The position numbers and the translations under genes were made by a program. This document shows positions 3,477 through 31,372 of a stretch of DNA of 59,968 bases, piece after piece. Origin of the DNA: a virus (lineage: Duplodnaviria; Caudoviricetes). The notes under the pieces are model-generated. The model did not search any database. It had not been told where the DNA came from and was given only the letters and a program-made list of their open reading frames with translations. The stretch lies in IMG/VR virus record IMGVR_UViG_3300034071_001219, positions 1 through 59,968 of that record; one strand, 5' to 3'. How positions within the stretch are numbered: the first letter of the stretch is position 1; every line of letters begins with the position of its first letter.

Positions 3477-3478
3477 AT

Positions 3479-11723: not shown

Positions 11724-11763
11724 AAAAAGTGAATAACTTCGCAAGTAATAATACCGAAACAGA

Positions 11764-11792
11764 ACCTTAAAGTCCACTAAGGTTTGGTTAAG
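11764..11792 (-). promoter_or_regulatory. Putative Pho box upstream of pstS
   Basis: CTTAACCA-3-CTTAGTGG-2-TTTAAGGT, resembling cyanobacterial PyTTAAPyPy(T/A) repeats. Confidence 0.6.
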
Positions 11793-11806
11793 GTTTTGGT
11801 TTCATA

Positions 11807-11833
11807 AAAAAGCACCCCTTTCTGGGGTGCTTT
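11807..11833 (-). terminator. Intrinsic terminator after the porin
   Basis: AGCACCCC-AGAAA-GGGGTGCT followed by a U tract. Confidence 0.8.
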
Positions 11834-11855
11834 CACTCATATCATGAGTTACTTA

Positions 11856-13388: not shown

Positions 13389-13452
13389 TTAAGAATTGCA
13401 ACTGAATTCTTAAGTACTTATTTAGTATAAGGGGATTTTGAAATATTGTCAA
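13389..13452 (-). promoter_or_regulatory. Porin promoter with a downstream inverted repeat
   Basis: TTGACA-17-TATACT (13452-13424); TTAAGAATT-7-AATTCTTAA at 13389-13413. Confidence 0.6.
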
Positions 13453-14279: not shown

Positions 14280-15090
14280 CATTAATACGGATCCATTCAT
14301 CGGGTATCAAATCTTTAGTATTTAAATCTTTAGTATATCCTGTTTTTCCAAACCATTGGGCAGGAGCAATCACCTTCTTATTTTTATTGGAAGATAACCA
14401 AGCGCCCCACCAAGAGAATGAAGAGTTGGCAATAATAAAATCATTACACAAAGACATCAGACAAAGATCAACTCTATTGTCAGTATTTTCGGAAATCAAG
14501 AACCTGTCATTAGAAAATAGTTCTTGTTGATTGCACCACTCAGGATCATCAGAAAAAACTACTACATTTCTATCTTCATCAAAGTGTTTCAATGCTGCCT
14601 CATAATACTCAAGAGGTAGGTTGAAATGATTCTCACTATTGACCAGGTAATCTGTACGGCGAACGTGAAGTGCAATAGGATTTTCTACAGAAGAAATCAT
14701 TTCTTTACAAGGTCCAAGAATCTCATTCTTGAATGTAAAGTCTTCACGAATCTCTTGTTCAATATGTTTGAAATATTTTTCAGTTTGAAAATATCCTTGC
14801 AAACTTACATGATCGGGGCAAAGAGTAAAGATCTCTTCATCAAACTCATGAAATCTTTCTTTGACTACAGGAGCATGACCATTATTCAAAACACCAATAT
14901 TTACATTTAGATCAAAAGAATCAAATAGTTCGGTTCTAAGTTTATTTCCAATCCCATCATCCACGGCAACCGTGTGATTGGGAATGCAAACATCAGCACC
15001 TACATTTCTAGCAATACCTTTTAGTGAGGCATACTGGAACATCTGATTTGCCAGACGACCCATTCTACCCAATGCATTAAATCCTATCAT
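14266..15090 (-). CDS. Alpha-1,2-fucosyltransferase-like (GT11)
   Basis: GRLANQMFQYA, GYFQTEKYF, HVRRTDY and IIANSSFSWWGAWL motifs. Confidence 0.92.
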   Translation of the reverse strand: MIGFNALGRMGRLANQMFQYASLKGIARNVGADVCIPNHTVAVDDGIGNKLRTELFDSFDLNVNIGVLNNGHAPVVKERFHEFDEEIFTLCPDHVSLQGYFQTEKYFKHIEQEIREDFTFKNEILGPCKEMISSVENPIALHVRRTDYLVNSENHFNLPLEYYEAALKHFDEDRNVVVFSDDPEWCNQQELFSNDRFLISENTDNRVDLCLMSLCNDFIIANSSFSWWGAWLSSNKNKKVIAPAQWFGKTGYTKDLNTKDLIPDEWIRINDGQE

Positions 15091-15893
15091 ACCAATTGTT
15101 CTCTACGTTTTTTTAGATAGTCTTGTTGTTGATAATACTCTATCAGTTTATCTTTGTCAAATGTCTTTATAGTATTCCAAAGTTGATAGTTATTATTGAA
15201 GTTTGGATTGCTAAACCAAGAGTTATGAGTTCTTGAATGTTCCAGATGATAGACATAGTTCTCAACTCTTTCAATACGATTTCCCAAAACACTCATACGA
15301 TAATAAAACTCATCGTCTTCACAACCCCAAGATATAAAGTTCTCATTCATCATAAATGAATCAATATATTTTTGGCGATTCACAAACTGGGTCCAACCTA
15401 TTGTTGAGTTTGAGATTGCTTTTCTCTTATCTAAGATAGAAGTGTCTAGAGTATTAACAAACTCTTCATAGATATCTGGACTATACTCTGCTCTCCACTG
15501 ATAGATTCCACAACCATAAGGATAGACAACATCTGCTTGATCGTTAATGATTGCTTCATAAGCTTGATGATATGAAGAGATTGGTAAAATACAATCCGCA
15601 TCATAGTTTGCTACAACTTTAGTATTTGAAACAACGATCAGATCATTTAGAACTTTACCTTTACAAAACAAAGGTTCATCAGACTCTTCAAAAAAATAAT
15701 CCAGATTAGAAGTATCAACATACTTCCTAATCTCTGGAATTGCCCTAAACTTAAAAGTTGGATGATGAGAGACTTCCTTGACCAATACTTTAGCAGGGAT
15801 GTGCCTTAGAAGATAAGAGACAGAGGATATAATGTTTCTCAATCTATCTTCAGTCTCTATTCTAGTTGGGATTAGAAAAGTTAAGTCCATCAT
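15087..15893 (-). CDS. Glycosyltransferase (GT-A; GT2/GT7-like)
   Basis: DADC DxD motif, NENFISWGCEDDEF and YHLEH. Confidence 0.8.
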   Translation of the reverse strand: MMDLTFLIPTRIETEDRLRNIISSVSYLLRHIPAKVLVKEVSHHPTFKFRAIPEIRKYVDTSNLDYFFEESDEPLFCKGKVLNDLIVVSNTKVVANYDADCILPISSYHQAYEAIINDQADVVYPYGCGIYQWRAEYSPDIYEEFVNTLDTSILDKRKAISNSTIGWTQFVNRQKYIDSFMMNENFISWGCEDDEFYYRMSVLGNRIERVENYVYHLEHSRTHNSWFSNPNFNNNYQLWNTIKTFDKDKLIEYYQQQDYLKKRREQLV

Positions 15894-16762
15894 CTCTGAA
15901 TTTTCTCCTCAGGAATCTGTTCAACAATCCAAGATTCTGGAATCAAGTCCTTAGTGTTATTGAAGGATAGTCTTTCACCAAACCAAGGATTTTGAGCAAT
16001 CACTTTCTTATTGGGATTCTTTTGCAACCAAGCACCCCACCAAGATAGAGAACTATTAGCAATAATAGCATCACTACACATTGACATTAGGCAAAGATCA
16101 TAAAATGGAACAAGAGACTTTTCCATTTGACCTGCACCATTCAGCACTTGCTTAGGATAATAAATCCGGGTTTCAGAAAGGTAGAAACGATCACCCTGAA
16201 ATAGTTTTTGTTCTTTTACCCATTCAAGATCATCGGAACAAATTAATACTGGTTGATTATCTGAGAAGTGTTTTTCAAGAAGGTACTCGTAATGATCAAC
16301 TACAGGCATAGGATACCAATCAGGACGACCTACGTTGTCACCCCTACGAATATGAAGCAAAACAATGTTTCCACCGAATTGTTCCATAAACTCATTACAA
16401 GTTCCGTGAATCTCATCTTTAAACTCAAAATCTTCACGAATAGAATCTCCAATATGTTTAAAGTATTTTTCAGTCTGACGATACCCATCGATGTTTACAT
16501 TATCCGGACAGTTATTAAAGAGTTCTTCATCAAACTCAAATCCAGGTTCATCCAAGGTTGGACCATTCTGAATAAATCCAACATTCTTTACATTCTTAAG
16601 TTTGAATGCATCAAAAAGACCGTAGTTAGCATAAGTTGGTGCATCCTCAGGAGGAATACACCAATCTAGATTATTGTTTGCAGCAATGCCACGAAGTGCT
16701 GCATACTGAAACATTTGGTTTCCCAAACGACCATTTGTTCCGAGCCTGTTATATCCAATCAT
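15890..16762 (-). CDS. Alpha-1,2-fucosyltransferase-like (GT11), second paralog
   Basis: GRLGNQMFQYA, HIRRGD and ANSSLSWWGAWL motifs. Confidence 0.92.
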   Translation of the reverse strand: MIGYNRLGTNGRLGNQMFQYAALRGIAANNNLDWCIPPEDAPTYANYGLFDAFKLKNVKNVGFIQNGPTLDEPGFEFDEELFNNCPDNVNIDGYRQTEKYFKHIGDSIREDFEFKDEIHGTCNEFMEQFGGNIVLLHIRRGDNVGRPDWYPMPVVDHYEYLLEKHFSDNQPVLICSDDLEWVKEQKLFQGDRFYLSETRIYYPKQVLNGAGQMEKSLVPFYDLCLMSMCSDAIIANSSLSWWGAWLQKNPNKKVIAQNPWFGERLSFNNTKDLIPESWIVEQIPEEKIQR

Positions 16763-17901
16763 AAGTCAATCCAAAATACTTCTTCGTTAGGAATACCAAA
16801 AATCAATCTATCACTATAGAGTCTTTCTAAGTTATCTCTCACTTCAACATCAATAGAATCATAATCAGTCACATAAACCCTATAGTTTTCTCCAACCAAA
16901 TCATAACACAAACGATATTGTTGACTTTCAGTTAGAATATCTGTTCCTGGTTTGTATGTAATATAATGAAAAGCAAAGGGAAGACCTCTAGTATTCTTTT
17001 CAATATAATAATCTTTCAAGAACTTAGCGTGTTCATTATTAAAGTTATCCGTTGTGAGTCCAAGGTTATATTCTAATCCAAGTTTTTTCGCATAAGCAGC
17101 AAAAGAACGATTGTCTCTTGGTAAGCACGGCCCACCAAATCCATATCCATATTTCAAAAACTTATTACCAATTCTAGTGTCATTGCCGATTGCACTCAAT
17201 ACAGAACCAATCTCTCCCCCCAAACCAGACTTGGTTAATACTTCACCCACCATATTAGCATAACTGATCTTAGTTGTAAGATAGCAGTTGATAGCAAGTT
17301 TTACAATTTCAGAAGCAGTCAAAGACATAAAGTTAATCTTTGGTTCTGATACTTGAATCTTGTTATAGATTTCGCTGATTAAAGATTTGGTTTTTTCAGA
17401 GTTCCCTCCAACCAAAACCATATCAGCATATTGAAGATCTCTAACAATTGTTCCCTGAGCAATAAACTCTGGATTGTAAAATACATCTACACCTAAAGCG
17501 TCTAGTTGCTTTTGGAAGTTTTCACAATCTCCAGGATTTGTAGTGCATCCAACGACAAATGTTTTTCCTCGAACAGGTTCATCTAGTTCTTGAATATCAT
17601 TGATGACCTGCCAAACGGCACTCACATCATAACTACCATCTGGCAATGAAGGAGTTGCTACTAGAGTGTAGATAAGATCACACTCACGAATAACCTCTTT
17701 ATTATCAATAGTAGCCTTAAAGTTTACAGCGTCATCCAAAAGGTCAGAAACCTGTGGTTCATTAGTTTTGATGACTCTATCATTCAGACCATTAACATAG
17801 TCTTCACGAACATCAGAAACTAATACTTCGTATCCTGCTTTTTCTAAAAGAAGAGCAAAGCAGATACCAAGTCTGCCTGCTCCGATAACTCCAATCTTCA
17901 T
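16759..17901 (-). CDS. UDP-glucose/GDP-mannose dehydrogenase family protein
   Basis: GAGRLG, YNPEFIAQG and GYGFGGPCLPRD motifs. Confidence 0.9.
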   Translation of the reverse strand: MKIGVIGAGRLGICFALLLEKAGYEVLVSDVREDYVNGLNDRVIKTNEPQVSDLLDDAVNFKATIDNKEVIRECDLIYTLVATPSLPDGSYDVSAVWQVINDIQELDEPVRGKTFVVGCTTNPGDCENFQKQLDALGVDVFYNPEFIAQGTIVRDLQYADMVLVGGNSEKTKSLISEIYNKIQVSEPKINFMSLTASEIVKLAINCYLTTKISYANMVGEVLTKSGLGGEIGSVLSAIGNDTRIGNKFLKYGYGFGGPCLPRDNRSFAAYAKKLGLEYNLGLTTDNFNNEHAKFLKDYYIEKNTRGLPFAFHYITYKPGTDILTESQQYRLCYDLVGENYRVYVTDYDSIDVEVRDNLERLYSDRLIFGIPNEEVFWIDL

Positions 17902-18671
17902 AGTTTAAATGTAGGAATAGCAACCATTTTATGTTTGTTTTGTTTATGAAACTTTTGGTAGATATTGATCGCAAGAGTTTCTTCTTCAGTTAAGAACAAA
18001 GGATCCTCGTTCAATCCCTTTTCCATTACCCATTCTAGCATTTCATATGATGTACCAATCTGATCTTCATCAGTTCTTCCATCATCCCAAAGACCATCAG
18101 TTGGTTTTGCCTCAACAATTCGCTGGTCAATTCCTAACGACTTGCCAAGTTCCCATACTTCAGTTTTGTAGAGATCTGCAATGGGAGCAATATCAACTCC
18201 ACCATCACCATATTTAGTGTAAAATCCTACACCATAATCCTCAACTTTATTTCCAGTACCCACAACAACACCACCAACGGAAGTTGCAACTTGATAAAGA
18301 GTTACCATACGAAGACGTGATCTACTATTTGCCAAAGCGAGTTCATTAAATCCCAACTCTCTCATAGTAAACTGAAAAGTATCAAAAACTTTTGCGAGAT
18401 CAAACTTGTTTGCTATTACATTTGGAAAGTTTGATTGTAACCATTCCAAATGAGCATCAGATAGAGTTTCCTGTTCCTCTTTTTGGTGGATAGGCATTCC
18501 TAGAACATATGTCGGAAGACCCGTAGATGCGGCAAGAGTTGAAGAAACTGCGGAGTCAATTCCACCAGAGACACCAACCACAAATGCTTTGATGTTATGT
18601 TCAATAACATAGTCACCTAACCACTTAACTATTCTATTTTTTAGATCAACATAATCAACAATACGATTCAT
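17898..18671 (-). CDS. nadE: NH3-dependent NAD+ synthetase
   Basis: GVSGGIDS, GTGNKVE, GFYTKYGDGG and TDEDQIG motifs. Confidence 0.93.
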   Translation of the reverse strand: MNRIVDYVDLKNRIVKWLGDYVIEHNIKAFVVGVSGGIDSAVSSTLAASTGLPTYVLGMPIHQKEEQETLSDAHLEWLQSNFPNVIANKFDLAKVFDTFQFTMRELGFNELALANSRSRLRMVTLYQVATSVGGVVVGTGNKVEDYGVGFYTKYGDGGVDIAPIADLYKTEVWELGKSLGIDQRIVEAKPTDGLWDDGRTDEDQIGTSYEMLEWVMEKGLNEDPLFLTEEETLAINIYQKFHKQNKHKMVAIPTFKL

Positions 18672-18705
18672 TTTAATACTTGGTTTTTAACTATTATACC
18701 ACAAA

Positions 18706-19047
18706 TCAGAGAGTCCTGCCATAATCATCCTCAAGTCTTTTAATATCAGACTCATCACACTTATCGCCCATCTGAACTTCGTAGAATAATATACCCTCAG
18801 CACCTGCTTTCATGCGATGTATTTGCTTTACTTCAATTTTAAACTTATCACCAACATTTACTGGAAAAGAGATTTTATCTAAAGTTATAAATCCACTACC
18901 TTCAACAACTATCCAATGCTCCTCTCTATGATCATGATACTGAAGAGAAAACTGTTGATTTGGATTTACATGGATTTTTTTAAGTTTATAACTTTCCCTT
19001 TCCTCTATGGTTTCAAACCATCCCCAAGGTCTTTTTTCTCTATTCAT
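18706..19047 (-). CDS. Mannose-6-phosphate isomerase type II, cupin domain
   Basis: RPWGWF, SLQYHDHREEHW, EVQ.G and DI.RLEDDYGR motifs. Confidence 0.88.
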   Translation of the reverse strand: MNREKRPWGWFETIEERESYKLKKIHVNPNQQFSLQYHDHREEHWIVVEGSGFITLDKISFPVNVGDKFKIEVKQIHRMKAGAEGILFYEVQMGDKCDESDIKRLEDDYGRTL

Positions 19048-19780
19048 TTTCGTAAATCCAGTTAGGGTTCCTATACACAAGATTTATCTCATTGTGATGA
19101 GTCTGCTCCTGATTTGGATGCCTCCTTTGATACATATGAATCTCATTATTGTGACAATACTTGTCAATGATATAGCAAACAGATGTACCAACAGTGTGAA
19201 TTTCTGATGCGTTTTCAAATGCACCTATCCAATCAAAGACATTAAATCCATTTGATTTATCCTGTTGAAGGTTCATGTAGTGAACTTTTTTGTCAGTATT
19301 AACATTGAAGTTATCCGAGTCATCAGGATCAGTACCAAAAGCACGATTGACGATTACATAATCTCCAGTAAGTCCATAAGTTTCAATCAACTTATTTTCT
19401 CTCTCTTTATTTCTGATAATATCAAAAGACTTTCTATAATCGGAAATGGGAACAGAAAGGAAATAATATTTTGCTGCCATCACAGAACACTTTGGAAGAT
19501 ATCGGTCAGCAAAACTTGCAGGAACATAAAGTTCATTTTCAGTTTGGTGAATATTCGCAGTTCCATAATACTGCTTAAGCGGGAAATCATCAGACTCTCT
19601 AACCCAGACAAGATTATCTTTTTTCAGATACTTTACGATCAAGTCATAATAAACATCACCAACAGGATAGTATACAGTGTATTCTTCCCCAATAATAACA
19701 TCAACTAATCGTTGAAGCCACAAAACATCACCCAGTCCCACTGGTTGATAAATCAAACAAGTTTTATTTGTAGTAGTCAT
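19040..19780 (-). CDS. Hypothetical protein, probable glycosyltransferase-like
   Basis: QPVGLGDV (GxGD) start and FDWI...A.EIH motif; sugar-island context. Confidence 0.55.
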   Translation of the reverse strand: MTTTNKTCLIYQPVGLGDVLWLQRLVDVIIGEEYTVYYPVGDVYYDLIVKYLKKDNLVWVRESDDFPLKQYYGTANIHQTENELYVPASFADRYLPKCSVMAAKYYFLSVPISDYRKSFDIIRNKERENKLIETYGLTGDYVIVNRAFGTDPDDSDNFNVNTDKKVHYMNLQQDKSNGFNVFDWIGAFENASEIHTVGTSVCYIIDKYCHNNEIHMYQRRHPNQEQTHHNEINLVYRNPNWIYENE

Positions 19781-20600
19781 AACAGTCCCTAATACCTTTT
19801 TCTAATCCATCGTATTCAATACAAGTTATACTATTGGCAGATCCACAATATGGATACTCAACATAACTTCCCTGTTTTATAATATTAACCTTATGATCAT
19901 CAAGATTATTAATCATTTCAGCGATTTCACTCAAATAATATTTTTCATTATATACACAGTTAACATCACGAACAAGAGTTTCACTTCCTATCCTCAGAAA
20001 ATAACTGATAATCTTATACAAATCATTTGCATAGATGAAATCTATTTTTCTATCTTTGAATATTCGAATATCTTTCCCATTAATATAGTTGTTAATATTA
20101 GTATTGAAGAACCTGCTAGATTCTTCATAAGGACCAAAACACCCAAAGATACGAAGGTTGATACCTTTCGGATTATCTAAAACCCTCTTAGCAATACAAT
20201 ACTTGGAGAATCCATATTTGTCCGCTGGAATAATCTGACCGAAGTTTTCTGGAGATGGTTCTTCTACTGGGGATGGACGACCATAAGATGCCCCACTATC
20301 TAGATTAATAAACAAAGTAGTCTTATCAATATGCCTAAAAAGATTTTCGAACATATTCATATTAGTATAGAACACGGACGATCCATCTTCAATTTCTCTA
20401 CGACCACCTATTATTGCACCATGAATAATAGCATCATATTTCTGGTTTTTAAATAAGGAATCAACTTCACTGGTTACTTCCAACCTAACTTGGTGAGATC
20501 TTGGTCTAACAATCTCCCATCCCTCCTGCTCTAAAAGAGGAACAATCTGGCGACCAATAAAACCATTGCCGCCAGTAAAAAGAATTTTACCCTTTTTCAT
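19764..20600 (-). CDS. NAD-dependent epimerase/dehydratase (SDR, probable sugar ketoreductase)
   Basis: TGGNGFIG and YGFSK (YxxxK). Confidence 0.88.
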   Translation of the reverse strand: MKKGKILFTGGNGFIGRQIVPLLEQEGWEIVRPRSHQVRLEVTSEVDSLFKNQKYDAIIHGAIIGGRREIEDGSSVFYTNMNMFENLFRHIDKTTLFINLDSGASYGRPSPVEEPSPENFGQIIPADKYGFSKYCIAKRVLDNPKGINLRIFGCFGPYEESSRFFNTNINNYINGKDIRIFKDRKIDFIYANDLYKIISYFLRIGSETLVRDVNCVYNEKYYLSEIAEMINNLDDHKVNIIKQGSYVEYPYCGSANSITCIEYDGLEKGIRDCYDYYK

Positions 20601-21453
20601 ACTTCCAACTAGAATCACTTAACAACTTTTCAAGTTCTTCATCTTTAATTTCATAGAAGTTTTCTTCAGCAGGAAACTTCAAATCACGAACTTCATTTAC
20701 ATAATCAGTTAGAGCAGATTGGATAAGTTGACCCGCCTCACAATAACGTTTGACAAACTTAGATTTAAACTCCCAGAAGAGTCCGATTAAATCGTGCATA
20801 ATCACAAGTTGTCCATCAACCTTATCACCAGCACCAATACCATAAACAGGAATATCAAGATTTTCTGCAATCATAGCAGCAGATTCTCTAGGCATTGCTT
20901 CCAGAAGAAGAAATGAGCATCCAGCATCTTGAAGTCTCAGTGCTTGATCAAGAATAACTTTTGCTTGATCTGCCGTTTTACCCTGAACTTTATAACCACC
21001 AAGTTTTGCCCTTGTATGTGGGGTCAATCCAAGATGACTCATTACCATAATGCCAGCACTACAAATCGCTTTTACACGATCAACCATACACCCCTCAACC
21101 TTAACTGCATCCATTCCTGCTTGAATGAAAGCACCCGCATTAGTGATTGCATCCTCATTAGAGATTTGATACGACATATAAGGAAGATCTCCAACAGTAA
21201 ATGCACGATTTACTCCACGGGATACTGCTCTTGCTGAACGAAGCATATCATCCATTGTTACTGGAATAGTAGTCGAATACCCCAAGGTTGTCATCCCTAG
21301 GGAATCACCAACAAGAATCCAATCTACTCCAGCATTGTCTGCCATAAGTGCCTGTGGATAATCATATGCGGTGACTCCAACAGTTTTTACTTTGTTTTGT
21401 TTTTGCTTTTGCAACTTAAGAATAGTTACTTTATCTTTATTATCAGCTGGCAT
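20587..21453 (-). CDS. panB: Ketopantoate hydroxymethyltransferase-family enzyme
   Basis: TAYDY, LVGDSLGM, DLPYMSY, AVKVEG, HLGLTP and GIGAG..DGQ motifs. Confidence 0.92.
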   Translation of the reverse strand: MPADNKDKVTILKLQKQKQNKVKTVGVTAYDYPQALMADNAGVDWILVGDSLGMTTLGYSTTIPVTMDDMLRSARAVSRGVNRAFTVGDLPYMSYQISNEDAITNAGAFIQAGMDAVKVEGCMVDRVKAICSAGIMVMSHLGLTPHTRAKLGGYKVQGKTADQAKVILDQALRLQDAGCSFLLLEAMPRESAAMIAENLDIPVYGIGAGDKVDGQLVIMHDLIGLFWEFKSKFVKRYCEAGQLIQSALTDYVNEVRDLKFPAEENFYEIKDEELEKLLSDSSWKYEKG

Positions 21454-21454
21454 A

Positions 21455-23155
21455 TCAATCTAGGGGGGTTACAATCATGTTAGCATAAAATTCCTCTCTA
21501 GACAAGAAAGGATACATATCTTCCAATGGTTTAGCAGTAACTGTACCATCTTCATTCTTTTTACCCATAAGAGTAGGAACAACTTCCTGCCACTTCTGAC
21601 ACATCACTTCAACTATCACTGGAGAATCAAATTTAAAAATCATCTTCATCGCATCATCGAACTGTTGATACTTTTCAATCCGCATATAAGGGATCTTATA
21701 TGCATGTGAAATATCTGCAAGGTCTGGGAACGAAATACCACTATCACTATCCGTTCCAATCTCTCTACCCTCAAAGAACTTTTTCTGAGTAGTTCTAATA
21801 GACAAATACCCATCATTATTCCACACAAAAAGTTTGATAGGTAGTTTATGATGAATGATAGTCTGAAGTTCTTGAATGTTCATTTGAAGAGAACCATCAC
21901 CAGTAACTCCAATTACAGATTTAGCACCTGCAAAAGACGCCCCAATACAAGCAGGAATTGTGAATCCCATTTCTGCTTGGGCACTTGTAGTTACATAGCG
22001 ATCATCACCTTTAATACCAACTGCTTGAGAACAAACATAATAGGCAGATCCAGCATCAGAAATAACAACACTACCTTCAGGTTTGTGTTGATTCAGTTTG
22101 CTCATAAAGTCATAAAGATTAATACCATCTTTATCAGATTCATAAGGAGGAGTGATTGTCCACCTTTTCCTCCAGTCTAAACATTTTTCTTGCCATTCGG
22201 AAGATTCGGAAGAAATACAATAAGAATCAAAGAACTCTCTGAGATCCATATGAATAAACTTATCAATCTTAATAGTATTCTTCGAATGCTCATCAGCATC
22301 AATATCAACTACAACTACCTTTGCACCTCTAGCAAACTGACTATAGTTATATCCAGTAACAGGAACTGGGAGACGACATCCAAGGACCAAAAGAAGATCG
22401 CAGTTTTGCATTGCGAAGTTTCCTGCTCTAGTTCCTTTGATCCCAACTCTTCCAACAAAGTAAGCATCATCAGACTCAATCAAGTCAACTGCATTGAAAG
22501 AAGTGACAACAGGAATCTTGGACTCATGAACATAATTCCTAAACTCCTGCTTAGAGATTCCTGCGCAGTTAATGCCATTGCCCGCAAGAATCAAAGGTCT
22601 TTTTGCAGACTTAACTTCTTCAACAAGATCAAAAAGATTCATTGACGCTCCTTGAAGATCCATTGGAACATCAATCCAAACAGGACCAGGACGACCTGTT
22701 GTTGCTTGTTTGATTGCTTCTTGGACTACACTTTCAACCTCATCAACACTCTCAATAATCTTAGAAAACTTAGTGATTGGTTTTACAATCTCAACAATGT
22801 TCGCTTCTTGAACTCCAAGATTACGAACTCCTTTCGGAGAAATCTGATTGAGATTCACATTGCCAGAGATAAAAATCACAGGAACACTGTCTTGCCAAGC
22901 ATCCAGAAGACCCGTGATTGTATTAGTACCACCACATCCGGTGGTAGGGCATACAGCAGCAACACTACCTGTATATTTTGCATAAGCAACTGCTGCCATA
23001 GCAGATGCTTGTTCGTGATGATTACAAACTGCTTTAATTCTTGGATGAGAAGCAATCGCATCATTCAAAAACATCGCACCACCACCAGTTACAGTGAAAA
23101 TGTGATGAGCACCTGCCTTATAAACTTGATCGATAATGTAATCTACTACTCTCAT
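21455..23155 (-). CDS. ThDP-dependent enzyme (acetolactate synthase/YerE-like)
   Basis: GGGAMFLND, HHEQA, GRPGPVW, GDGS..MNIQEL and NNDGYLSIR motifs. Confidence 0.9.
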   Translation of the reverse strand: MRVVDYIIDQVYKAGAHHIFTVTGGGAMFLNDAIASHPRIKAVCNHHEQASAMAAVAYAKYTGSVAAVCPTTGCGGTNTITGLLDAWQDSVPVIFISGNVNLNQISPKGVRNLGVQEANIVEIVKPITKFSKIIESVDEVESVVQEAIKQATTGRPGPVWIDVPMDLQGASMNLFDLVEEVKSAKRPLILAGNGINCAGISKQEFRNYVHESKIPVVTSFNAVDLIESDDAYFVGRVGIKGTRAGNFAMQNCDLLLVLGCRLPVPVTGYNYSQFARGAKVVVVDIDADEHSKNTIKIDKFIHMDLREFFDSYCISSESSEWQEKCLDWRKRWTITPPYESDKDGINLYDFMSKLNQHKPEGSVVISDAGSAYYVCSQAVGIKGDDRYVTTSAQAEMGFTIPACIGASFAGAKSVIGVTGDGSLQMNIQELQTIIHHKLPIKLFVWNNDGYLSIRTTQKKFFEGREIGTDSDSGISFPDLADISHAYKIPYMRIEKYQQFDDAMKMIFKFDSPVIVEVMCQKWQEVVPTLMGKKNEDGTVTAKPLEDMYPFLSREEFYANMIVTPLD

Positions 23156-24459
23156 TTTTCAAAAGTCGAAGTAATGGAACCAATATATTCAATCATTTGA
23201 TCAGTAATAGTTGGCGAACATCCAACGAAGAAAACAAGATCAAGAACCTTACAAGCATTTGGATAGTTCTTGTAGTAATCAAGGTGACTATAACCAGGAT
23301 GCATAAGAATATTACCAGCAAAATAGTTTCTAGTTTGAATCTTATTTGATTCAAGATGTTGAGTCAGTTTATTCTTAGTTTCTTTAGAATCACAGACAAT
23401 CGGAACACCAAACCAACTAGTCTCTGCCCGAGAAAGTTCGTTAATACTACGAACTCCAGGAATCTTCTCAAAGTGTTCTTGAATTTTTACTTTGTTCAAT
23501 CTGCGGAGGTAATGAATCTCTTCAAACTTTTCAATCTGAACTGACCCCAGAGCACCTTGAAAATCCATCGGTTTGAGATTATATCCCATTTCACTATAGA
23601 CATATTTGTGGTCAATGATGCCATCATATTTTTCAATCCACTTATCAAATCTCTTACCACAAACGCCACAAGAGAGAAGATTCTGAGCGCCTACACAATA
23701 ACAATCACGACCCCACCAAGCAAGACTGCGAGCAATGTTAATAAGTTCTTCATCATCACTAGAAACCATTCCACCTTCACCAGTGCAAATATGATGCGCT
23801 GGATAGAAAGAACAAGATGCCGCAATAGAATAATCAGTTAGATATTGATCGTTCCACTTACTACCAAGAGAATCGCAGTTATCCGAGATCAGATAGATTT
23901 TATTCCTTTCGCAGATATCAATAACTTGATCAAGGTTATATGGATTTCCAAGAACAGGAGAAGAAATAATACCACGAGTACGAGTAGTAATCTTATCCTC
24001 AATCTCATTAATATCCCAGTTGAGATCTGAGAAATCAATGTCAACAAATACGGGTTTTAAACCAGTCTGAACAATAGGTGCGATCGTAGTTGGAAACCCC
24101 ACGCAAGAAACAATAATTTCGTCGCCATCTTGCCAACCAAACCTTTTCTTTAGAGCAGACATCATAATCAGGTTAGCAGAACTACCTGAGTTGACCATCA
24201 AAGAGTGTTTTTTGTTGAACTTTTTTGAGAACGTATTTTCAAACTTACGCACTTCCTCACCTGAAGCAAGCCACTTACCTGCAAGAAAAGACTTAAGAAT
24301 CACACCAATCTCTTCATTAGTCCAGAAAGGACCAGAATAATAAACAGGAGATTCTCCAGGAACAAACTCCCCACTGTTAGCAAGATATGGAAAAAGATCT
24401 TCTTCAGTTGATGTAATGTTTTGAAGAAAATCTTGGATTAAAGTATTGATGTTGCTCAT
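23152..24459 (-). CDS. rfbH: NDP-4-keto-6-deoxyhexose 3-dehydrase (RfbH/DdhC/E1 type; PMP + Fe-S)
   Basis: VNSGSSANL, SFYPAHHI.TGEGG (His in place of the Schiff-base Lys), GRDCYC...CG cluster, HKYVY..GYNLK. Confidence 0.85.
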   Translation of the reverse strand: MSNINTLIQDFLQNITSTEEDLFPYLANSGEFVPGESPVYYSGPFWTNEEIGVILKSFLAGKWLASGEEVRKFENTFSKKFNKKHSLMVNSGSSANLIMMSALKKRFGWQDGDEIIVSCVGFPTTIAPIVQTGLKPVFVDIDFSDLNWDINEIEDKITTRTRGIISSPVLGNPYNLDQVIDICERNKIYLISDNCDSLGSKWNDQYLTDYSIAASCSFYPAHHICTGEGGMVSSDDEELINIARSLAWWGRDCYCVGAQNLLSCGVCGKRFDKWIEKYDGIIDHKYVYSEMGYNLKPMDFQGALGSVQIEKFEEIHYLRRLNKVKIQEHFEKIPGVRSINELSRAETSWFGVPIVCDSKETKNKLTQHLESNKIQTRNYFAGNILMHPGYSHLDYYKNYPNACKVLDLVFFVGCSPTITDQMIEYIGSITSTFEK

Positions 24460-24461
24460 AG

Positions 24462-25313
24462 TTATTTTGTGATTTGATCAATGTAATCTAGTGCCTCTTG
24501 GCTTACAGCAGTTCTAAACCATTTACGGAGACCTCCGTTGGTTTTATTCACTTCTGCTGCCAAAGATCCACCAGCTTGATGTAGTACTTTAACTACCATT
24601 CTATCACCATTTACAGGATCGTCAAGACATAACTGACCATCTTGCACATACAAATTTCTCCAACTATCCCAATGAGTTTCATCTCCCCAAGTGTTACATA
24701 CCCCATAGGAAAGACCAGTTCCCATTAGATCAATAACCTTTGCCGAATATTTTCCACAGTGAAATAGTTGATTCAAAGTGTCTTGTTCATCCCCAAGTCC
24801 GTGAAAATAAGGATCAACTTCAGTCTTGATTCTATATGCTTCTTTGTTTAGATTGTGCCAGTCACACCAAAACTCTTTATTGTTTGAAGCAATCAAACCA
24901 GCATTAATAAACTGTTGTACTGGAATAGGACTACCATTACCAAATGGAGGTAAATGTGCAATCGTGATTCCTTGATGGGAACTTGCTTTACCCAATGAGT
25001 TATTGTTTCTTACTCCAATAATATCTTCATCACTTTCAAATAACTCAGTCAGTGGTCCAGTAACAACGGAGTCTCCATCAATATGAACCACCATATCATA
25101 GTCTTCAATGAATGGTATACAAGTTGGTGCCATCATCCAAACAGGTTGAAGCCAAGGATCAGTTACCTTTGCTTCATCTGTCATCTTAGAATCAAAAATA
25201 AAAAAGTCAATGTCTGGATGAAAGTGTTTAAAAGATTTAACCAGATCTTGAACTCCGATCAAATCAACATAATCATCAGTACACCAAGTGGATACTGCAA
25301 TTCTCTTAGACAT
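24462..25313 (-). CDS. Glycosyltransferase (GT8-like, GT-A)
   Basis: HIDGDSVV DxD motif, FINAGL and EQDTLN. Confidence 0.7.
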   Translation of the reverse strand: MSKRIAVSTWCTDDYVDLIGVQDLVKSFKHFHPDIDFFIFDSKMTDEAKVTDPWLQPVWMMAPTCIPFIEDYDMVVHIDGDSVVTGPLTELFESDEDIIGVRNNNSLGKASSHQGITIAHLPPFGNGSPIPVQQFINAGLIASNNKEFWCDWHNLNKEAYRIKTEVDPYFHGLGDEQDTLNQLFHCGKYSAKVIDLMGTGLSYGVCNTWGDETHWDSWRNLYVQDGQLCLDDPVNGDRMVVKVLHQAGGSLAAEVNKTNGGLRKWFRTAVSQEALDYIDQITK

Positions 25314-25315
25314 AA

Positions 25316-25687
25316 TCAGTTATATTTGGGAAGGATCTTTTGCTCTTTTACCTGACTATTAGTGAGTTGATTGATCTCGTTCTTTACATAGAATCTCTGA
25401 TCATTGTTATGATAAACATCCCTTGCAAGTTGGATAAAGGTTTCATCAAAAACTTTATTCTTTTCACAGTTACGAATATTATCCTCAACATCCCAAATAG
25501 TTTTATTCACATCCCTAAGAGAATCAATCAGATTTTGAGGAACATTCAGTTCTTCAACAATAGGAGTGAGATAGTTCAGTTCATATTCAATGTTTTTGAG
25601 TTTCTCCTCACTATCACACTTTTCTTTTTTGATTTCAAGAATCGTCATTTTATCTACGATTTCACCAACAGATACTTCAATCCTCAT
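25316..25687 (-). CDS. DUF6165-like protein associated with sugar clusters
   Basis: VSVGEIVDKMTILEIK ... WDVED ... F.LARDVY.NND.R. Confidence 0.7.
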   Translation of the reverse strand: MRIEVSVGEIVDKMTILEIKKEKCDSEEKLKNIEYELNYLTPIVEELNVPQNLIDSLRDVNKTIWDVEDNIRNCEKNKVFDETFIQLARDVYHNNDQRFYVKNEINQLTNSQVKEQKILPKYN

Positions 25688-25699
25688 TTTTCCTCCTAA

Positions 25700-26476
25700 T
25701 CATTTCCATTTATTGAAGGGATATGTATCCCAATTTTTTGCTAGATATTCCTCACCGAAAAGTTTGGTTCCAACATTTCCATCTTTGAATGGTGGCAGTT
25801 CTCTACCTCTCCTAACAAATAGAGAATCTCCCCACATTTCTCTTTGATATGAAGAAGACATTTCCCTAAGTTCAAAACCCCTTTCATCCAACCATTGCAC
25901 AATCTCTTCGTGCGATACGCCAGATTTATGCCTATCATCAAGTGTTGTTTCCAAATCAACAACATTGATATGATCAAGATATTTTTCAAATCCAATCAAG
26001 ACATCAAGTTCTGCACCCTCAACATCAATATTCAAGAAGTCATACTCATTCATATCAATGCCATTTTCTTCAATCACAGTTGCAAGAGTCTTAGTCTTAA
26101 CTTTGATTGAGTTCACTTTATTCCATTCAGGAAGTCCTTGATAAAAACTTGAACCATGCTCAGCAAAGTAAAAGTTTTTGACACAGTTATCTTCACGATA
26201 AACAAACTCATTAAAGATTTGAAATCCCCATTTATCAGCAACTGGTTTTGCCATATTCTGATAGATGTTTGGATTTGCTTCTACACCTACAACTTTATTA
26301 CCAAAAAGTTTAGTATAGCATCCATATTCGATAAAGTCCCAAAGACCAACGTGAATCACACCTTTGGGTTGAACATTAATTCTTTCAAAGATTCCAGTGT
26401 ATTCTGCTGTGGGATTATCCCAAACCGCATATCCCGTCTCTTTATTCCAAGAAGCATAAGGACCTAACATACTCAT
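25700..26476 (-). CDS. FkbM-family methyltransferase
   Basis: VIHVG, VEANP and FLNIDVEGAELDVL motifs. Confidence 0.88.
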   Translation of the reverse strand: MSMLGPYASWNKETGYAVWDNPTAEYTGIFERINVQPKGVIHVGLWDFIEYGCYTKLFGNKVVGVEANPNIYQNMAKPVADKWGFQIFNEFVYREDNCVKNFYFAEHGSSFYQGLPEWNKVNSIKVKTKTLATVIEENGIDMNEYDFLNIDVEGAELDVLIGFEKYLDHINVVDLETTLDDRHKSGVSHEEIVQWLDERGFELREMSSSYQREMWGDSLFVRRGRELPPFKDGNVGTKLFGEEYLAKNWDTYPFNKWK

Positions 26477-27276
26477 GAGAAATACCTCCCATAGATATAA
26501 TCTTCTAAAATTTCCATTTCCTTTGCCTTTTCAAGATTTTCTTTTATGGCATCCATCTTACTATAATAGATTTCATCCGATACCTCAAACTCTTCAGTAA
26601 GATCAATGATTCCATCTTTATTAAAGTAATCACCAATATCAGGAGCACCCAGATAAACAGGAATAGTGCCCGTGGCAAAACAATCTAGAAGTTTTTCCGT
26701 AAAGTAAGTTCCATATTGTCCATTCTCAATGGCAACAGAGAACATATAATCACAGAGACCTTCTTCCTTATTTGCGATTTCTTTAAATCCCCTTCCATAC
26801 ATATCAACTTGCCCCCACAGTCTTTCTACCCATTCAAGGCGAAGTTTATGACCTTCACACATAGTCTTGTTAGATGAGATCATAGAAATCATCTTTGTTT
26901 TATCATAGATTTTTGGATCTTGAATCCAAAATCCTTGAGCAGGACACCACTTAAACTTTGGATCAATGGCAAGAAGATCTTGATTGTGGGTAAAGATTGC
27001 ATCAAAAGTTTCAAGATATTTTTCAGGAAACATCCTCACAGAATCTACGATCTGCGGAGTGATGTATTTGGACTCAAGTAACCAACCATATTTTGGTCCA
27101 GGAATGTCGTCTATTTCAGCTTGTCCTAAAGTACTGTCAATATAAAAAGTTGCCTCTCCACTACCGTCCTTGACCCATTCAATATATTTTGACTCTTTCC
27201 CGTGAACAGAGTATCCTTTATTTCCGTTCGTAAGATGAGTAAATGTATTTCCTACAAGATTAAACTTCGTTTTCAT
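26473..27276 (-). CDS. GT10 (alpha-1,3-fucosyltransferase-like)
   Basis: YMFSVAIEN...YFTEKLLDCFATGTIPVYLG. Confidence 0.88.
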   Translation of the reverse strand: MKTKFNLVGNTFTHLTNGNKGYSVHGKESKYIEWVKDGSGEATFYIDSTLGQAEIDDIPGPKYGWLLESKYITPQIVDSVRMFPEKYLETFDAIFTHNQDLLAIDPKFKWCPAQGFWIQDPKIYDKTKMISMISSNKTMCEGHKLRLEWVERLWGQVDMYGRGFKEIANKEEGLCDYMFSVAIENGQYGTYFTEKLLDCFATGTIPVYLGAPDIGDYFNKDGIIDLTEEFEVSDEIYYSKMDAIKENLEKAKEMEILEDYIYGRYFS

Positions 27277-28202
27277 GGTACAATCAAATCTAATTGTTTA
27301 ATATCAAACTTTGATAACTTAATATCTATAAGATTTTTTGTAAAGGGTCCTTCGCCAAGTTTGCAATACTCATAAAGTGCTCTTGTCGGATCTGGCATAT
27401 TAGGATCTTCATAATCAATAAAGAGCATAAGTTTTAAACAACTAAGATACTTAAACAAATCAAAGATACCAGAACACTGACCAATAATAATAAGGTTCTG
27501 ATGTCTCACAACATAATCTAAAAGATCTTGCAGTTCATACTTGTCTAGTGGTTCAGTTCCTTCAAATGTCTTTTGATTCTTGAAGACATTTGTTTTCTTT
27601 GTCATATTAACGATTACTTTGTATCCCTTCTCCTTCATCTTGGATACAATGTTTTCCCAAAAAGAATCATTGAGTTGATAACTATCACCTCGTTCTGGAA
27701 AAAGAATACAAGTTTTTTCTTCAATATCCTTTGTAGCATTTAGATCATACTCATAAATCTTCTGAAGAATACCAGTATTATGAATATTGTTCAGATGGTC
27801 CCAATCCTTAAAAGGCATATGAGCAACTTTCAACTTGCCATATGTATGTGCATTCTGCACGATTTGTGGATCTTGTGGATAAAATCCATTGCAAGACATT
27901 AAGACTTCTTCTTGATCAATTGGATATCCTTTATAAACCTGGAAATCATCTGGATAAATGACAATCTCCTCACACTTATGAGGAGAAGGAACATAGTTAT
28001 CGAGAATAAACTTGATTCCATTATAGATTCGCTTTTGGCACAGAATCTTATATGGAACAGGAGACCTTGACTCCAAGAATAGAGTTGCAGCAGTTGCGTC
28101 CCCCATTCCCCAACACATTAAGTACCAGTTTTCATTTTGGAAGATCGACTTATCAAGATTCAAAGTTTCTTCAAAGGTTATTTCTCTTACAATCACTGAC
28201 AT
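27273..28202 (-). CDS. Hypothetical protein in the sugar island (possible GT-B)
   Basis: GMGD motif near the N-terminus; coupled to its neighbours. Confidence 0.55.
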   Translation of the reverse strand: MSVIVREITFEETLNLDKSIFQNENWYLMCWGMGDATAATLFLESRSPVPYKILCQKRIYNGIKFILDNYVPSPHKCEEIVIYPDDFQVYKGYPIDQEEVLMSCNGFYPQDPQIVQNAHTYGKLKVAHMPFKDWDHLNNIHNTGILQKIYEYDLNATKDIEEKTCILFPERGDSYQLNDSFWENIVSKMKEKGYKVIVNMTKKTNVFKNQKTFEGTEPLDKYELQDLLDYVVRHQNLIIIGQCSGIFDLFKYLSCLKLMLFIDYEDPNMPDPTRALYEYCKLGEGPFTKNLIDIKLSKFDIKQLDLIVP

Positions 28203-29083
28203 AAAATATTCTCCAAAATGCCAAAACTTTCCTGTGTTGTATGACTATGAATGTTTGTTGCTTTATAAAGTTTTTTATTAAACCAAATTTCTAAATCTGG
28301 TTTATGAGTATTATCCTGTGTTTGAGTAATCAAGATTTTATTCTCATCCTCAACATTATCATTATGCATTGAAGAAGCAACCGCTGCACCACTAAATCTA
28401 CCAACTATTATATCACAAAAAATACTTAAATACGAGTTGTGTAATATGTCCGAAGGATATTTTCCAAAAACATCTGGGGTATAAAAAATATTTTTATTGG
28501 TAACTTCCTTCGACTCTTTATTAGTATAATAAAAGTCCCAATCTTTATTTTGGTTTGATAGTTTAAGTATTCTATCCAACCAATCTTCATTATCAGTCTG
28601 TCCAGATTTACCTTTATGGTTCAGAAATAAAACTTTCTTTCTACCATTATCCTTTAGGGATTTGATTTTGTTTACAGATTCTTTATCAAGGATGGATTCA
28701 TAATCAAAGTTAATACCCAAGTTATCAGGAACTATAATATCAAACCCATGTTTCCTAAAAATAAAATTCCAGGCACGTCTATGAACAAAGAAAGTGTCCT
28801 CTAGACCTGGAAAAGTTTGATCGGTTTCTGTGTGGGGAATGATTAACTCCGAATATTCCATGTTACATAACCAAGTTGGGATATTAAGATCGCCACATAG
28901 TTCATCAGTAGAAATAAGTCCAGGGACTGTTTTCATGAAAATCTCAGGAAAAACAGTCCCATCAGACCCATAGATGTACTGATAATATTCGTGCTCTGGG
29001 TATTTCTCAACCAGAAGATTGATAAATGGAGCAGCGAATAAAAAGTCACCCAAATGCGCTTCAGTGTAAAAGCAGATCTTCAT
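28193..29083 (-). CDS. Hypothetical protein in the sugar island (possible GT-B)
   Basis: HLGD N-terminal motif, SGQ and CDIIVGRFSG. Confidence 0.55.
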   Translation of the reverse strand: MKICFYTEAHLGDFLFAAPFINLLVEKYPEHEYYQYIYGSDGTVFPEIFMKTVPGLISTDELCGDLNIPTWLCNMEYSELIIPHTETDQTFPGLEDTFFVHRRAWNFIFRKHGFDIIVPDNLGINFDYESILDKESVNKIKSLKDNGRKKVLFLNHKGKSGQTDNEDWLDRILKLSNQNKDWDFYYTNKESKEVTNKNIFYTPDVFGKYPSDILHNSYLSIFCDIIVGRFSGAAVASSMHNDNVEDENKILITQTQDNTHKPDLEIWFNKKLYKATNIHSHTTQESFGILENILCQ

Positions 29084-29085
29084 AC

Positions 29086-30159
29086 TCAGACAGGATGATG
29101 CATAGGAGCATCTTTATAAACTTGAGCATTAATCCACTCATACGTTCTACGAATGCCTTCCTCAAGAGTCATTGTATAATCCCAACCCAGTTTTTCACGA
29201 ATCAAATCGTTATTTGAGTTACGACCACGAACACCAAGAGGACCATCAATATGATTCTTCTCTACATTTTTACCGGATACTTTTGCTGCAGTATCTGCAA
29301 GTTGATTGATTGTAACCATTTCCTCAGAACCAATATTCACTGGACCCTCAAAATCAGATTTCATCAAACGACGAGTTGCTTCAATACACTCCTCAATAAA
29401 CAAGAAGGAACGTGTTTGCTCTCCGTCACCCCAAACATCAATTGTTCCACCACTAGGAGAAAGTTCTGCGACCTTGCGACACATAGCAGCAGGAGATTTT
29501 TCTTTACCACCAGTCCAAGTTCCTTCTGGACCAAAGATATTATGGTAGCGAGCAATCCTTACAGGAATGCCATAGTTACGACTGTAGGAGAGGTACAGAC
29601 GCTCCGAGAACAGTTTCTCCCAACCATACTCAGAGTCGGGTCCTGCAGGATATGCATCAGACTCTTTCAGACCAGGATTGTTCACATCCATCTGTGCATA
29701 CTCGGGGTACATGCAAGCAGAAGATGAATAGAAGATTTTAGTTTTGCTTTCTCCAGTAAAATCATTCAGTTTTCTGACAGAATCCAAAATGTTCAAATTA
29801 ATCAGAGCAGAGTTGTGCATCACATCTGCATCATGATCACCAGTAAAGATATATCCAGCACCACCCATATCGGCAGCAAACTGATAAATCTCATCAAAGG
29901 TTTCAATATACCGAGAAGGTACAAAGTGGTAGTAGTTGCCAGAGTATCCTTTAAACTGAACAACTTTTTCTACAAAAATTTGATCAGTTAGATCACCACG
30001 AATAAACTCATTCGCAGATGAGTTAGAGAATTCGGGATACTTGAGATCAACTCCACGAACCCAGTATCCTTCTTCACGAAGTCTCCTTACCATATAACTT
30101 CCAATAAATCCGCCAGCACCACAAACAAGTGCTGTTTTTTGTTTTTCGCCCATTCGCAA
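29086..30159 (-). CDS. NAD-dependent epimerase (GDP-mannose 3,5-epimerase-like)
   Basis: GAGGFIG, AADMGGAGYI, YSSSACMYP, YGWEKL and GVRGRNS motifs. Confidence 0.88.
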   Translation of the reverse strand: MRMGEKQKTALVCGAGGFIGSYMVRRLREEGYWVRGVDLKYPEFSNSSANEFIRGDLTDQIFVEKVVQFKGYSGNYYHFVPSRYIETFDEIYQFAADMGGAGYIFTGDHDADVMHNSALINLNILDSVRKLNDFTGESKTKIFYSSSACMYPEYAQMDVNNPGLKESDAYPAGPDSEYGWEKLFSERLYLSYSRNYGIPVRIARYHNIFGPEGTWTGGKEKSPAAMCRKVAELSPSGGTIDVWGDGEQTRSFLFIEECIEATRRLMKSDFEGPVNIGSEEMVTINQLADTAAKVSGKNVEKNHIDGPLGVRGRNSNNDLIREKLGWDYTMTLEEGIRRTYEWINAQVYKDAPMHHPV

Positions 30160-30192
30160 ACTCCTTATTTTGATTAAATTTTATTTTATAGT

Positions 30193-31356: not shown

Positions 31357-31372
31357 ATCTTATTCCTCCGTA

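Follow-up and report, generated by a model that had tools for sequence, protein, structure and literature searches.

A viral PanB paired with a YerE-like carboligase suggests a variant route to C4-branched 3,6-dideoxyhexoses

In the yersiniose A pathway of Yersinia pseudotuberculosis (DdhA-D/AscA-D, YerE, YerF), an E1-type dehydratase is combined with a thiamine diphosphate (ThDP)-dependent addition at C4 and a reduction by a short-chain dehydrogenase/reductase (SDR); the pathway is linked to cytidine diphosphate (CDP), includes an E3 reductase and dispenses with a donor-making enzyme, YerE using pyruvate. Erwiniose, caryophyllose and gastriose have been brought together by Steitz et al. 2022 in a 'unifying scheme' (ErwI/ErwJ-ErwE-ErwF; MMAR_2331-2332; MygI-MyGE-MygF), in which the carboligases ErwE, MMAR_2332 and MyGE add 4-hydroxy-2-oxoacids, supplied by a neighbouring aldolase, to a keto-sugar (PMC9306805). 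ErwE accepts 4-hydroxy-2-oxobutanoate and rejects pyruvate, and transamination is given as another route to a donor (PMC9306805). The present study concerns four genes of a viral genome fragment, IMG/VR record IMGVR_UViG_3300034071_001219 (positions 1 to 59,968; this whole stretch of 59,968 nucleotides (nt) is termed the window), which encode an RfbH-like protein of the DegT family, a ThDP enzyme, a PanB protein and an SDR (Table 1).

The locus resembles the yersiniose A pathway in its predicted E1-type dehydratase, C4 addition by a ThDP enzyme and SDR reduction, and differs from it in that the sole 4,6-dehydratase found in the window is GMD (GDP-mannose 4,6-dehydratase) and in that no E3 was found among the open reading frames (ORFs) of at least 100 amino acids (aa) in the window. 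With the erwiniose, caryophyllose and gastriose systems it would have in common an E1-type 3-dehydratase, a YerE-like carboligase, an NAD(P)H reductase, a neighbouring maker of a 4-hydroxy-2-oxoacid and a surface-glycan setting; unlike in those systems, the donor maker would be a folate-dependent hydroxymethyltransferase, not a pyruvate aldolase, and the host is a virus. Compared with the erwiniose type, the predicted side chain is C1-extended and possibly gem-dimethyl. By analogy with these systems, the four genes probably represent a viral variant of the yersiniose/erwiniose route to C4-acyl-branched 3,6-dideoxyhexoses, in which PanB takes the place of the aldolase.

The pairing of PanB with a YerE-like enzyme recurs across viruses. 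A search with the ThDP protein yielded 48 IMG/VR loci with a relative, in 37 of which a PanB gene follows the ThDP gene, the order being orf283-RfbH-ThDP-PanB-SDR or ThDP-PanB-SDR. Three of the other eleven loci end at the ThDP gene, and eight, several of which are giant-virus bins, possess a 38-41% identical ThDP gene without PanB. With the PanB protein as query, the best 80 of 176 viral matches (71-99% identical) were inspected, and a ThDP gene was found directly beside PanB in 79 of these, the exception being a locus that ends 331 nt upstream of PanB. The order is ThDP-PanB in 57 loci and PanB-ThDP in 22, where the ThDP protein is 29-35% identical to that of the window. In 52 of the 78 loci where this could be assessed, the gene that comes directly after PanB encodes a relative of the window's SDR (SDR284). 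Two divergent ThDP lineages still match the structures of JanthE and 5AHK best (282/266 and 314/317 bits), with acetohydroxyacid synthase (AHAS) at 227-228 bits. A third scan, performed with an alignment of divergent PanBs, contributed another 27 loci, with PanBs of 42-65% identity to that of the window; when the lone divergent PanB of locus L045 served as query, its own contig was the only match. Among the resulting 107 viral PanB loci, some of which are near-identical to one another, the ThDP gene lies within 400 nt of PanB in 101, within 2.5 kilobases (kb) in three and at 3.4 kb in one, and it is absent from two, one of these being the locus that ends 331 nt upstream. Nucleotide-sugar genes form the constant context of the viral PanB-ThDP loci, and a 3-dehydratase of the His type accompanies the pair in all three arrangements. 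The association of PanB with the ThDP gene is thus beyond chance, and it spans three divergent YerE-like lineages, tailed phages and giant-virus bins.

The viruses involved could be classed from other genes. Five records with the ThDP-PanB-SDR order (G206-G210) are tailed phages on the basis of helicase, primase and baseplate genes; one encodes a gp41-like helicase and a gp61-like primase that are 58% and 37% identical, respectively, to those of the window, and three encode baseplate-wedge proteins. Searches of these five records for capsid proteins of nucleocytoplasmic large DNA viruses (NCLDV) and for Gp23 returned nothing, and an NCLDV capsid gene is likewise missing from four records rated complete (171-194 kb). 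NCLDV capsid genes were found in L314 (giant-virus bin G214), L312, L316 and L241, in which the PanB-ThDP pair sits beside DegT/SDR genes. One giant-virus bin has eight NCLDV capsid genes, and a number of eight capsid genes is stated for prasinoviruses in a passage of PMC5371798. A wider proposal, plausible if tentative, is that PanB-ThDP is a mobile cassette of tailed phages, giant algal viruses and perhaps some archaea that builds pantoyl-like C4-branched 3,6-dideoxyhexoses, i.e., sugars with a hydroxymethylated, possibly gem-dimethyl C5 branch.

Several further loci are of a more individual nature. The ThDP gene adjoining PanB is matched in two pieces in L245 and L257, maybe owing to a frameshift or an assembly error. 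In L184, L187 and also L051, B12-binding radical-SAM genes and methyltransferase genes lie next to the ThDP gene or to its pair with PanB; such neighbours may serve C-methylation of the sugar or of its branch. A tblastn search of a phage collection with PanB and the ThDP enzyme mostly retrieved bacterial-looking DNA filed as phage, and the one real-looking match, in Microcystis phage MaAM05, was set aside since its panB lies beside panC and sufBCD, an ordinary context. The Synechococcus phages RN05-S, RB11-B, S-B43, S-B05 and S-H68 possess a 61% identical RfbH-like gene in a similar island, and none of the five was among the PanB-matched records or among the 30 of the 48 ThDP-matched records that were listed.

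All three TPP_enzyme domains of Pfam are present in the ThDP enzyme of the window, whose best PDB matches are JanthE (8RPH, 363.6 bits) and 5AHK (264.7 bits), the latter of which we take to be PpYerE, compared to 207.3 bits for the best AHAS. Its scores also fall below the cut-offs of AHAS equivalog models (TIGR00118, 326 versus 538.35; best AHAS model NF006524, 352.6 versus 738), so that a comparison with IlvB and YerE, which a previous sequence-only reading of the window had recommended, places it nearer to the YerE-like enzymes. The likeness to JanthE, a protein of Janthinobacterium sp. HH01, spans the full length, and in the alignment to 8RPH the phage enzyme has the canonical GDG motif where JanthE has CDG. 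In the portion of PMC12188165 consulted, JanthE is described as a carboligase that accepts ketones and a broad range of donors and whose natural substrates are not known, and a change of its K567 to Ser is stated to open the active-site cleft; the corresponding residue of the phage enzyme is Thr, at approximately residue 528 by a hand count on the alignment. The product is therefore predicted to be a YerE-like ThDP carboligase that adds an acyl branch at C4, and it probably also binds flavin adenine dinucleotide (FAD).

The RfbH-like protein scores just below the cut-off of NF011936 (376.6 versus 423), and its best PDB match is E1 (3BCX, 235 bits), followed by ColD (184 bits). In its motif FYPAHH, aligned with E1 3BCX, a His occupies the position of the Schiff-base Lys, which is K in 3BB8, and the Cys-rich motif WGRDCYC...C..C is retained with a four-residue insertion, the upstream CC of E1 being NC here. 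The same His is present in nine of nine DegT proteins that were aligned, encoded beside PanB-ThDP pairs or YerE-like genes and including one bacterial locus, and these proteins are therefore considered 3-dehydratases. The protein of the window is accordingly predicted to be an E1/RfbH-type 3-dehydratase of nucleoside diphosphate (NDP)-4-keto-6-deoxyhexoses, yielding a 4-keto-3,6-dideoxy acceptor. The SDR belongs to the Epimerase family (PF01370, E value 8e-25), with TGGNGFIG (GxxGxxG) and YGFSK (YxxxK) motifs, and is predicted to be a YerF-like extended SDR that would reduce the branch ketone.

The PanB of the window is covered by PF02548 over positions 1-259 of 259 (E value 9e-97) and exceeds both NCBIfam cut-offs (TIGR00222, 282.9 versus 207.55; NF001452, 315.5 versus 272). 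Like housekeeping PanB (1M3U; TIGR00222), to whose E. coli representative 1M3U it aligns over its full length, it retains the catalytic residues: D50, S51, D89, K118, E120, H140 and E185 are invariant in the PanB alignment and line up with D45, S46, D84, K112, E114, H136 and E181 of E. coli PanB, which contribute the metal-binding, substrate-binding and base roles. According to the part of PMC7610986 consulted, E. coli PanB functions as a 2-oxoacid aldolase in which I202, I212 and V214 limit the nucleophile, and enlarging the pocket at these positions widens the range; a hand mapping on the 1M3U alignment places I, L and I there in the phage protein, i.e., an un-enlarged pocket. Over the 80 viral loci PanB remains 71-99% identical, while its partners fall to 29% (ThDP), 27% (SDR) and 31% (RfbH), a pattern in keeping with an enzyme whose substrate is a constant small metabolite and not the variable sugar.

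The viral PanB differs from the housekeeping one in its lineage and in certain residues. In a FastTree phylogeny of 189 PanBs, a comparison with housekeeping PanB that the sequence-only reading had also called for, the 81 viral sequences form one clade (support 0.987, stem 0.32); this tree omitted the 61% identical representative mentioned below and all representatives of at least 340 aa. Position 146, a Gln in the GLTPQ loop of 95% of the 93 other representatives, is His in 81 of 81 PanBs of the viral clade, which also has Ser instead of Pro at position 231, a common C-terminal tail (...EELEKLL..WKYE), and a ThDP gene in place of panC as neighbour. Of 1.84 billion cluster representatives, one reaches 61% identity to the viral PanB and none of the rest exceeds 54%; the nearest representatives include P0053, which bears the unconfirmed label of a Pseudomonadota metagenome-assembled genome, and many long, possibly eukaryotic proteins. 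Cyanobacterial PanB, detected in 181 of 201 genomes, is at best 49% identical to the viral protein, which is thus not a recent host copy. In five genomes that carry YerE-like loci, the housekeeping PanB is encoded elsewhere in the genome and is 33-44% identical.

These observations bear on the view that the two proteins are independent auxiliary metabolic genes, PanB serving pantothenate and coenzyme A (CoA) and the ThDP enzyme acting as acetolactate synthase for valine, leucine and isoleucine. Published interpretations take this line: a passage of PMC8940887 names the pantothenate gene PanB as the most abundant vitamin gene in viromes of oxygen-minimum zones and reads it as a booster, the available text of PMC6851583 reports PanB in OlV7, OlV2, OlV5, OlV6 and OtV-2 with 'role unknown' and possibly in cofactor supply, and in parts of PMC5371798 and PMC5454428 the prasinovirus 'acetolactate synthase', acetaldehyde dehydrogenase, aminotransferase and dehydroquinate synthase are read as amino-acid genes. 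The score of the viral PanB above the PanB equivalog models agrees with such a function. That of the ThDP enzyme, below the AHAS cut-offs and nearer to YerE-like enzymes, does not, nor does the identity of at most 49% between the viral PanB and the PanBs of the 201 cyanobacterial genomes. Furthermore, the sequence-only reading had reported ilvC, ilvD, panE and panC to be missing from the window. Six-frame searches detected no PanC, IlvD or IlvC there; run on 14 control genomes, the same searches gave matches in 9 to 14 of them. None of the three was found in five of five cassette-bearing viral records rated 100% complete. For PanE the only trace was a sub-threshold ApbA match within an NDP-sugar dehydrogenase, and no AHAS small subunit was found among the window's ORFs of at least 100 aa. 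The earlier proposal that PanB does not serve pantothenate synthesis and belongs instead to a yersiniose-type module is therefore upheld by the presence of a YerE-like gene close to PanB in 101 of the 107 loci, by the scores of the ThDP enzyme and by the motifs of the RfbH-like protein. Since this adjacency and the nucleotide-sugar contexts would be left unexplained by two independent genes, that explanation is regarded as very improbable.

For the favoured route we infer a chemistry, an order of steps, a carrier, a 2-oxoacid and a glycan from the protein families, catalytic residues and gene pairing observed above and from the purifying selection described below. The E1-type dehydratase would carry out C3 deoxygenation of an NDP-4-keto-6-deoxyhexose, probably GDP-4-keto-6-deoxymannose produced from GMD activity, a step for which a ColD-type enzyme encoded nearby could be an alternative. 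PanB would hydroxymethylate a 2-oxoacid of the host with 5,10-methylene-tetrahydrofolate to a 4-hydroxy-2-oxoacid, the default substrate being 2-oxoisovalerate, which would give ketopantoate, with 2-oxobutanoate or pyruvate also possible. The YerE-like enzyme would then decarboxylate the 4-hydroxy-2-oxoacid and add the acyl-anion equivalent to the C4 ketone, after which the ketone of the branch would be reduced by the SDR. A ketopantoate donor would thus yield NDP-3,6-dideoxy-4-C-(1,3-dihydroxy-2,2-dimethylpropyl)hexose, and the branched sugar might subsequently be used by glycosyltransferases encoded in the same island, among which orf283 is a weak candidate.

The same gene set would also allow the branch to be formed first, the ThDP enzyme adding acetyl from pyruvate, PanB hydroxymethylating the sugar-bound methyl ketone and the SDR reducing the product. 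An alpha-hydroxy ketone could chelate the metal like a 2-oxoacid, and gene order gives no direction, as both ThDP-PanB and PanB-ThDP are found. PanB, however, lacks any additional domain that could accommodate a nucleotide sugar, retains the residues that bind the carboxylate and keto groups as well as the bulky pocket residues (the latter as described in the consulted part of PMC7610986), and has diverged far less than the partners that handle the sugar. In addition, a late aldol step was ruled out for ErwE, the one tested analogue, which rejected pyruvate (PMC9306805). Branch formation before hydroxymethylation is consequently deemed unlikely, and the canonical PanB site, the conservation of PanB and the ErwE precedent favour a donor-first order over sugar-bound hydroxymethylation.

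Cellular relatives of the ThDP enzyme provide a further comparison. Among the best 80 of at least 595 bacterial and archaeal matches to this one ThDP lineage (35-51% identical), PanB was found within 8 kb in none, while RfbH-like, SDR284-like and 4,6-dehydratase genes are often nearby. Neighbours were then clustered for 126 loci, with two genes taken on each side of the ThDP gene. The largest class comprises 103 SDRs (38 viral and 65 bacterial), followed by 47 E1-like proteins, 36 PanBs and 29 orf283 proteins, the latter two classes being exclusively viral. The remaining classes are HpcH/HpaI aldolases (24 + 4), HMGL-like proteins (14), NeuB (10) and class I/II aminotransferases, of which there are six, encoded directly upstream, four being Pfam-confirmed and beside bacterial relatives of 46-51% identity. 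The occurrence of aldolases, HMGL-like proteins, NeuB and aminotransferases as neighbours indicates that the slot beside a YerE-like enzyme is usually filled by a maker of 2-oxoacids. The sequence-only reading had left two options for PanB, i.e., extension of the sugar branch or synthesis of a hydroxymethylated 2-oxoacid donor; the second is favoured and the first less so, because the PanB residues are kept, the pocket is un-enlarged, PanB is conserved and the bacterial slot holds enzymes of free 2-oxoacids. The four closest bacterial relatives (L049, L053, L064 and L088) have a class I/II aminotransferase gene directly upstream of the YerE-like gene, which suggests donors derived from amino acids, and in L053 two radical-SAM genes lie downstream.

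A third alternative holds that the genes make a free small molecule, such as a pantoate-like hydroxy acid or an acyloin, and that a subsequent step places this molecule on a sugar as a non-carbohydrate substituent, not as a C-C branch. The succession of a canonical PanB and a reductase is reminiscent of the chemistry from ketopantoate to pantoate, and an NDP-sugar dehydrogenase as well as an ATP-dependent, NadE-like amidating enzyme are encoded in the surrounding island. Yet SDR284-like genes also flank YerE-like genes in bacterial loci that lack PanB, as seen from the 65 bacterial neighbours, implying that the SDR is a partner of the carboligase, not of PanB. As the His-type 3-dehydratase, which makes a ketone acceptor, is present in all three arrangements, and as the conserved core contains no acyl-activating or acyl-transfer gene, this alternative is held to be improbable.

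A number of points weigh against the route proposed here. Its substrates and step order rest on analogy, and the bacterial comparison covers only the best 80 of at least 595 matches to one ThDP lineage. The quaternary carbon beside the carbonyl of ketopantoate would make it a hindered ThDP donor, and we know of no YerE-like enzyme that has been tried with ketopantoate. The island contains two 3-dehydratases and no CDP-glucose genes were seen, while no E3-type or ferredoxin-reductase-type protein occurs among the window's ORFs of at least 100 aa, the record representing ~26% of the genome. The His at position 146 in all 81 viral PanBs implies that substrate or cofactor may differ from the canonical ones. 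Finally, the missing panC and ilv genes weaken a vitamin role without excluding it, and single-step auxiliary genes are common in phages.

The integrity of the four genes was assessed in metagenomes. DNA near-identical to positions 19000-25400, i.e., sharing at least half of the sampled words, is present in 14 further run rows from nine studies of lake, freshwater, sediment and aquatic metagenomes, a count that excludes the possible source sample, and contigs from four lake or freshwater runs (four studies) span this region with zero indels. Of the substitutions within the four genes, 34 are among the 40 listed (47 in all), and 29 of them are synonymous and five non-synonymous. The four genes are thus shown here to be intact and under purifying selection. 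Short joints and loose ends, with sides of 21-35 letters, small contigs and 90-95% likeness, were taken as relatives and not as deletions. None of the runs listed as carrying positions 19000-25400 is an RNA run, and a megablast of this region against the phage collection gave no match.

Among open-access PMC papers and bioRxiv preprints, no paper was found that ties PanB to YerE-like sugar branching. If the proposal is correct, viral PanB, counted as 'pantoate transferase' in some ocean viromes, and the prasinovirus 'acetolactate synthase' would be glycan genes that shape the surfaces of virions or infected cells, and a common viral gene, read as a pantothenate/CoA booster in the passage of PMC8940887, would have to be reread as one of glycan synthesis. 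The prasinovirus amino-acid cluster with PanB (OtV, OlV, MpV) resembles the giant-virus bins described here, in which PanB-ThDP lies beside DegT/SDR genes, and this 'amino-acid synthesis cluster' may be a branched-sugar pathway. The scheme of an aldolase plus a YerE-like enzyme would gain a folate-dependent donor step, with an undescribed sugar as its predicted product, and biocatalysis would obtain a natural pair of a hydroxymethylating 2-oxoacid enzyme and a ketone-accepting carboligase. It would also imply an exchange of glycan cassettes between phages and giant viruses.

The host virus is probably a T4-like cyanomyovirus, i.e., a freshwater picocyanobacterial myovirus. Outside the sugar genes the window is that of a phage, with ribonucleotide reductase, primase, a DnaB-like helicase, MazG, lysozymes and a tail-fibre-like protein, and with the cyanophage extras transaldolase, 6-phosphogluconate dehydrogenase, PstS, ferritin and peroxiredoxin; its NrdA shares 87% identity with the corresponding protein of Synechococcus phage S-SM2. 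The CheckV completeness of the IMG/VR record is 26%. The closest cultured relatives are marine Synechococcus phages, yet near-identical DNA sits in freshwater samples.

The ORF limits confirm the tight coupling of the four genes that had been noticed earlier, all on the minus strand (Table 1): the SDR and PanB genes overlap by 32 nt and the ThDP and RfbH genes by 4 nt, while the gap between PanB and the ThDP gene is 1 nt. The glycosylation island that had been proposed around them was likewise recovered, as a run of minus-strand sugar genes at positions 13449-32386 (~19 kb). It encodes GT25, two GT11, GT7C and GT10 glycosyltransferases, an FkbM methyltransferase, the NDP-sugar dehydrogenase, the NadE-like protein, a small cupin, GMD, the ColD-type dehydratase and a relative of GDP-mannose 3,5-epimerase.

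Table 1. Coordinates of the four-gene module and of further features of the window
Feature	Position	Strand	Remarks
SDR	19764-20618	minus	284 aa, GTG start
PanB	20587-21453	minus	288 aa
ThDP enzyme	21455-23155	minus	566 aa
RfbH-like DegT protein	23152-24459	minus	435 aa
orf283, candidate GT-A glycosyltransferase	24462-25313	minus	accompanies the module in the cyanophage lineage
orf246	19040-19780	minus	17-nt overlap with the SDR gene; conservation of 90-96% among the closest viral loci
Small cupin, mannose-6-phosphate-isomerase C-terminal type	18706-19080	minus	PF01050, E value 7e-26
GMD, GDP-mannose 4,6-dehydratase	31373-32386	minus	TIGR01472, 518 versus cut-off 415
ColD-type 3-dehydratase	30193-31356	minus	387 aa; best PDB match ColD 2GMS (185 bits)
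GDP-mannose 3,5-epimerase-like SDR (SDR357)	29086-30159	minus	best PDB match 2C59 (299 bits)
NDP-sugar dehydrogenase, then NadE-like ATP-dependent amidating enzyme	16759-18671	minus	dehydrogenase: TIGR03026, 213.6 bits
309-aa ORF	27273-28202	minus	
PstS-type phosphate-binding protein beside OprB-family porin	10758-13355	minus	porin: 499 aa, S-layer-homology domain
GIY-YIG and NUMOD3 homing-endonuclease-like gene	3428-4096	plus	in a short plus-strand block

GMD is the sole 4,6-dehydratase found in the island and thus a possible entry point to the pathway; in loci L034 and L035 a GMD gene (51% identity) directly follows the SDR gene, and in L045 a cupin gene likewise comes after that of the SDR. 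In the ColD-type enzyme, the motif GHH puts a His at the Lys position and the Cys motif is lacking; this enzyme is a possible second source of the 4-keto-3,6-dideoxy acceptor. A role of SDR357 as a ColC-type reductase was considered and dropped, as the protein is instead a relative of GDP-mannose 3,5-epimerase.

In 29 viral loci, orf283 is the second gene upstream of that for the ThDP enzyme; the leads to its function are weak, consisting of a GT8 match at an E value of 0.09 and of atlas clusters named GT8 or nucleotide-diphospho-sugar transferase. No match to Pfam, NCBIfam or PHROG was obtained for orf246, and no family was matched by orf296 or orf309. The NDP-sugar dehydrogenase and the NadE-like enzyme co-occur in many related viral loci, and the pair may make a uronamide sugar. 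A sub-threshold Pfam match of the 309-aa ORF to the C-terminal receptor-binding domain of clostridial neurotoxins (21.1 versus a cut-off of 25 bits) at most hints at a carbohydrate-binding fold.

Outside the island, the PstS-type protein and the neighbouring porin, which is of a cyanobacterial outer-membrane type, may form a phosphate-uptake pair, and a homing-endonuclease-like gene is present on the opposite strand (Table 1).

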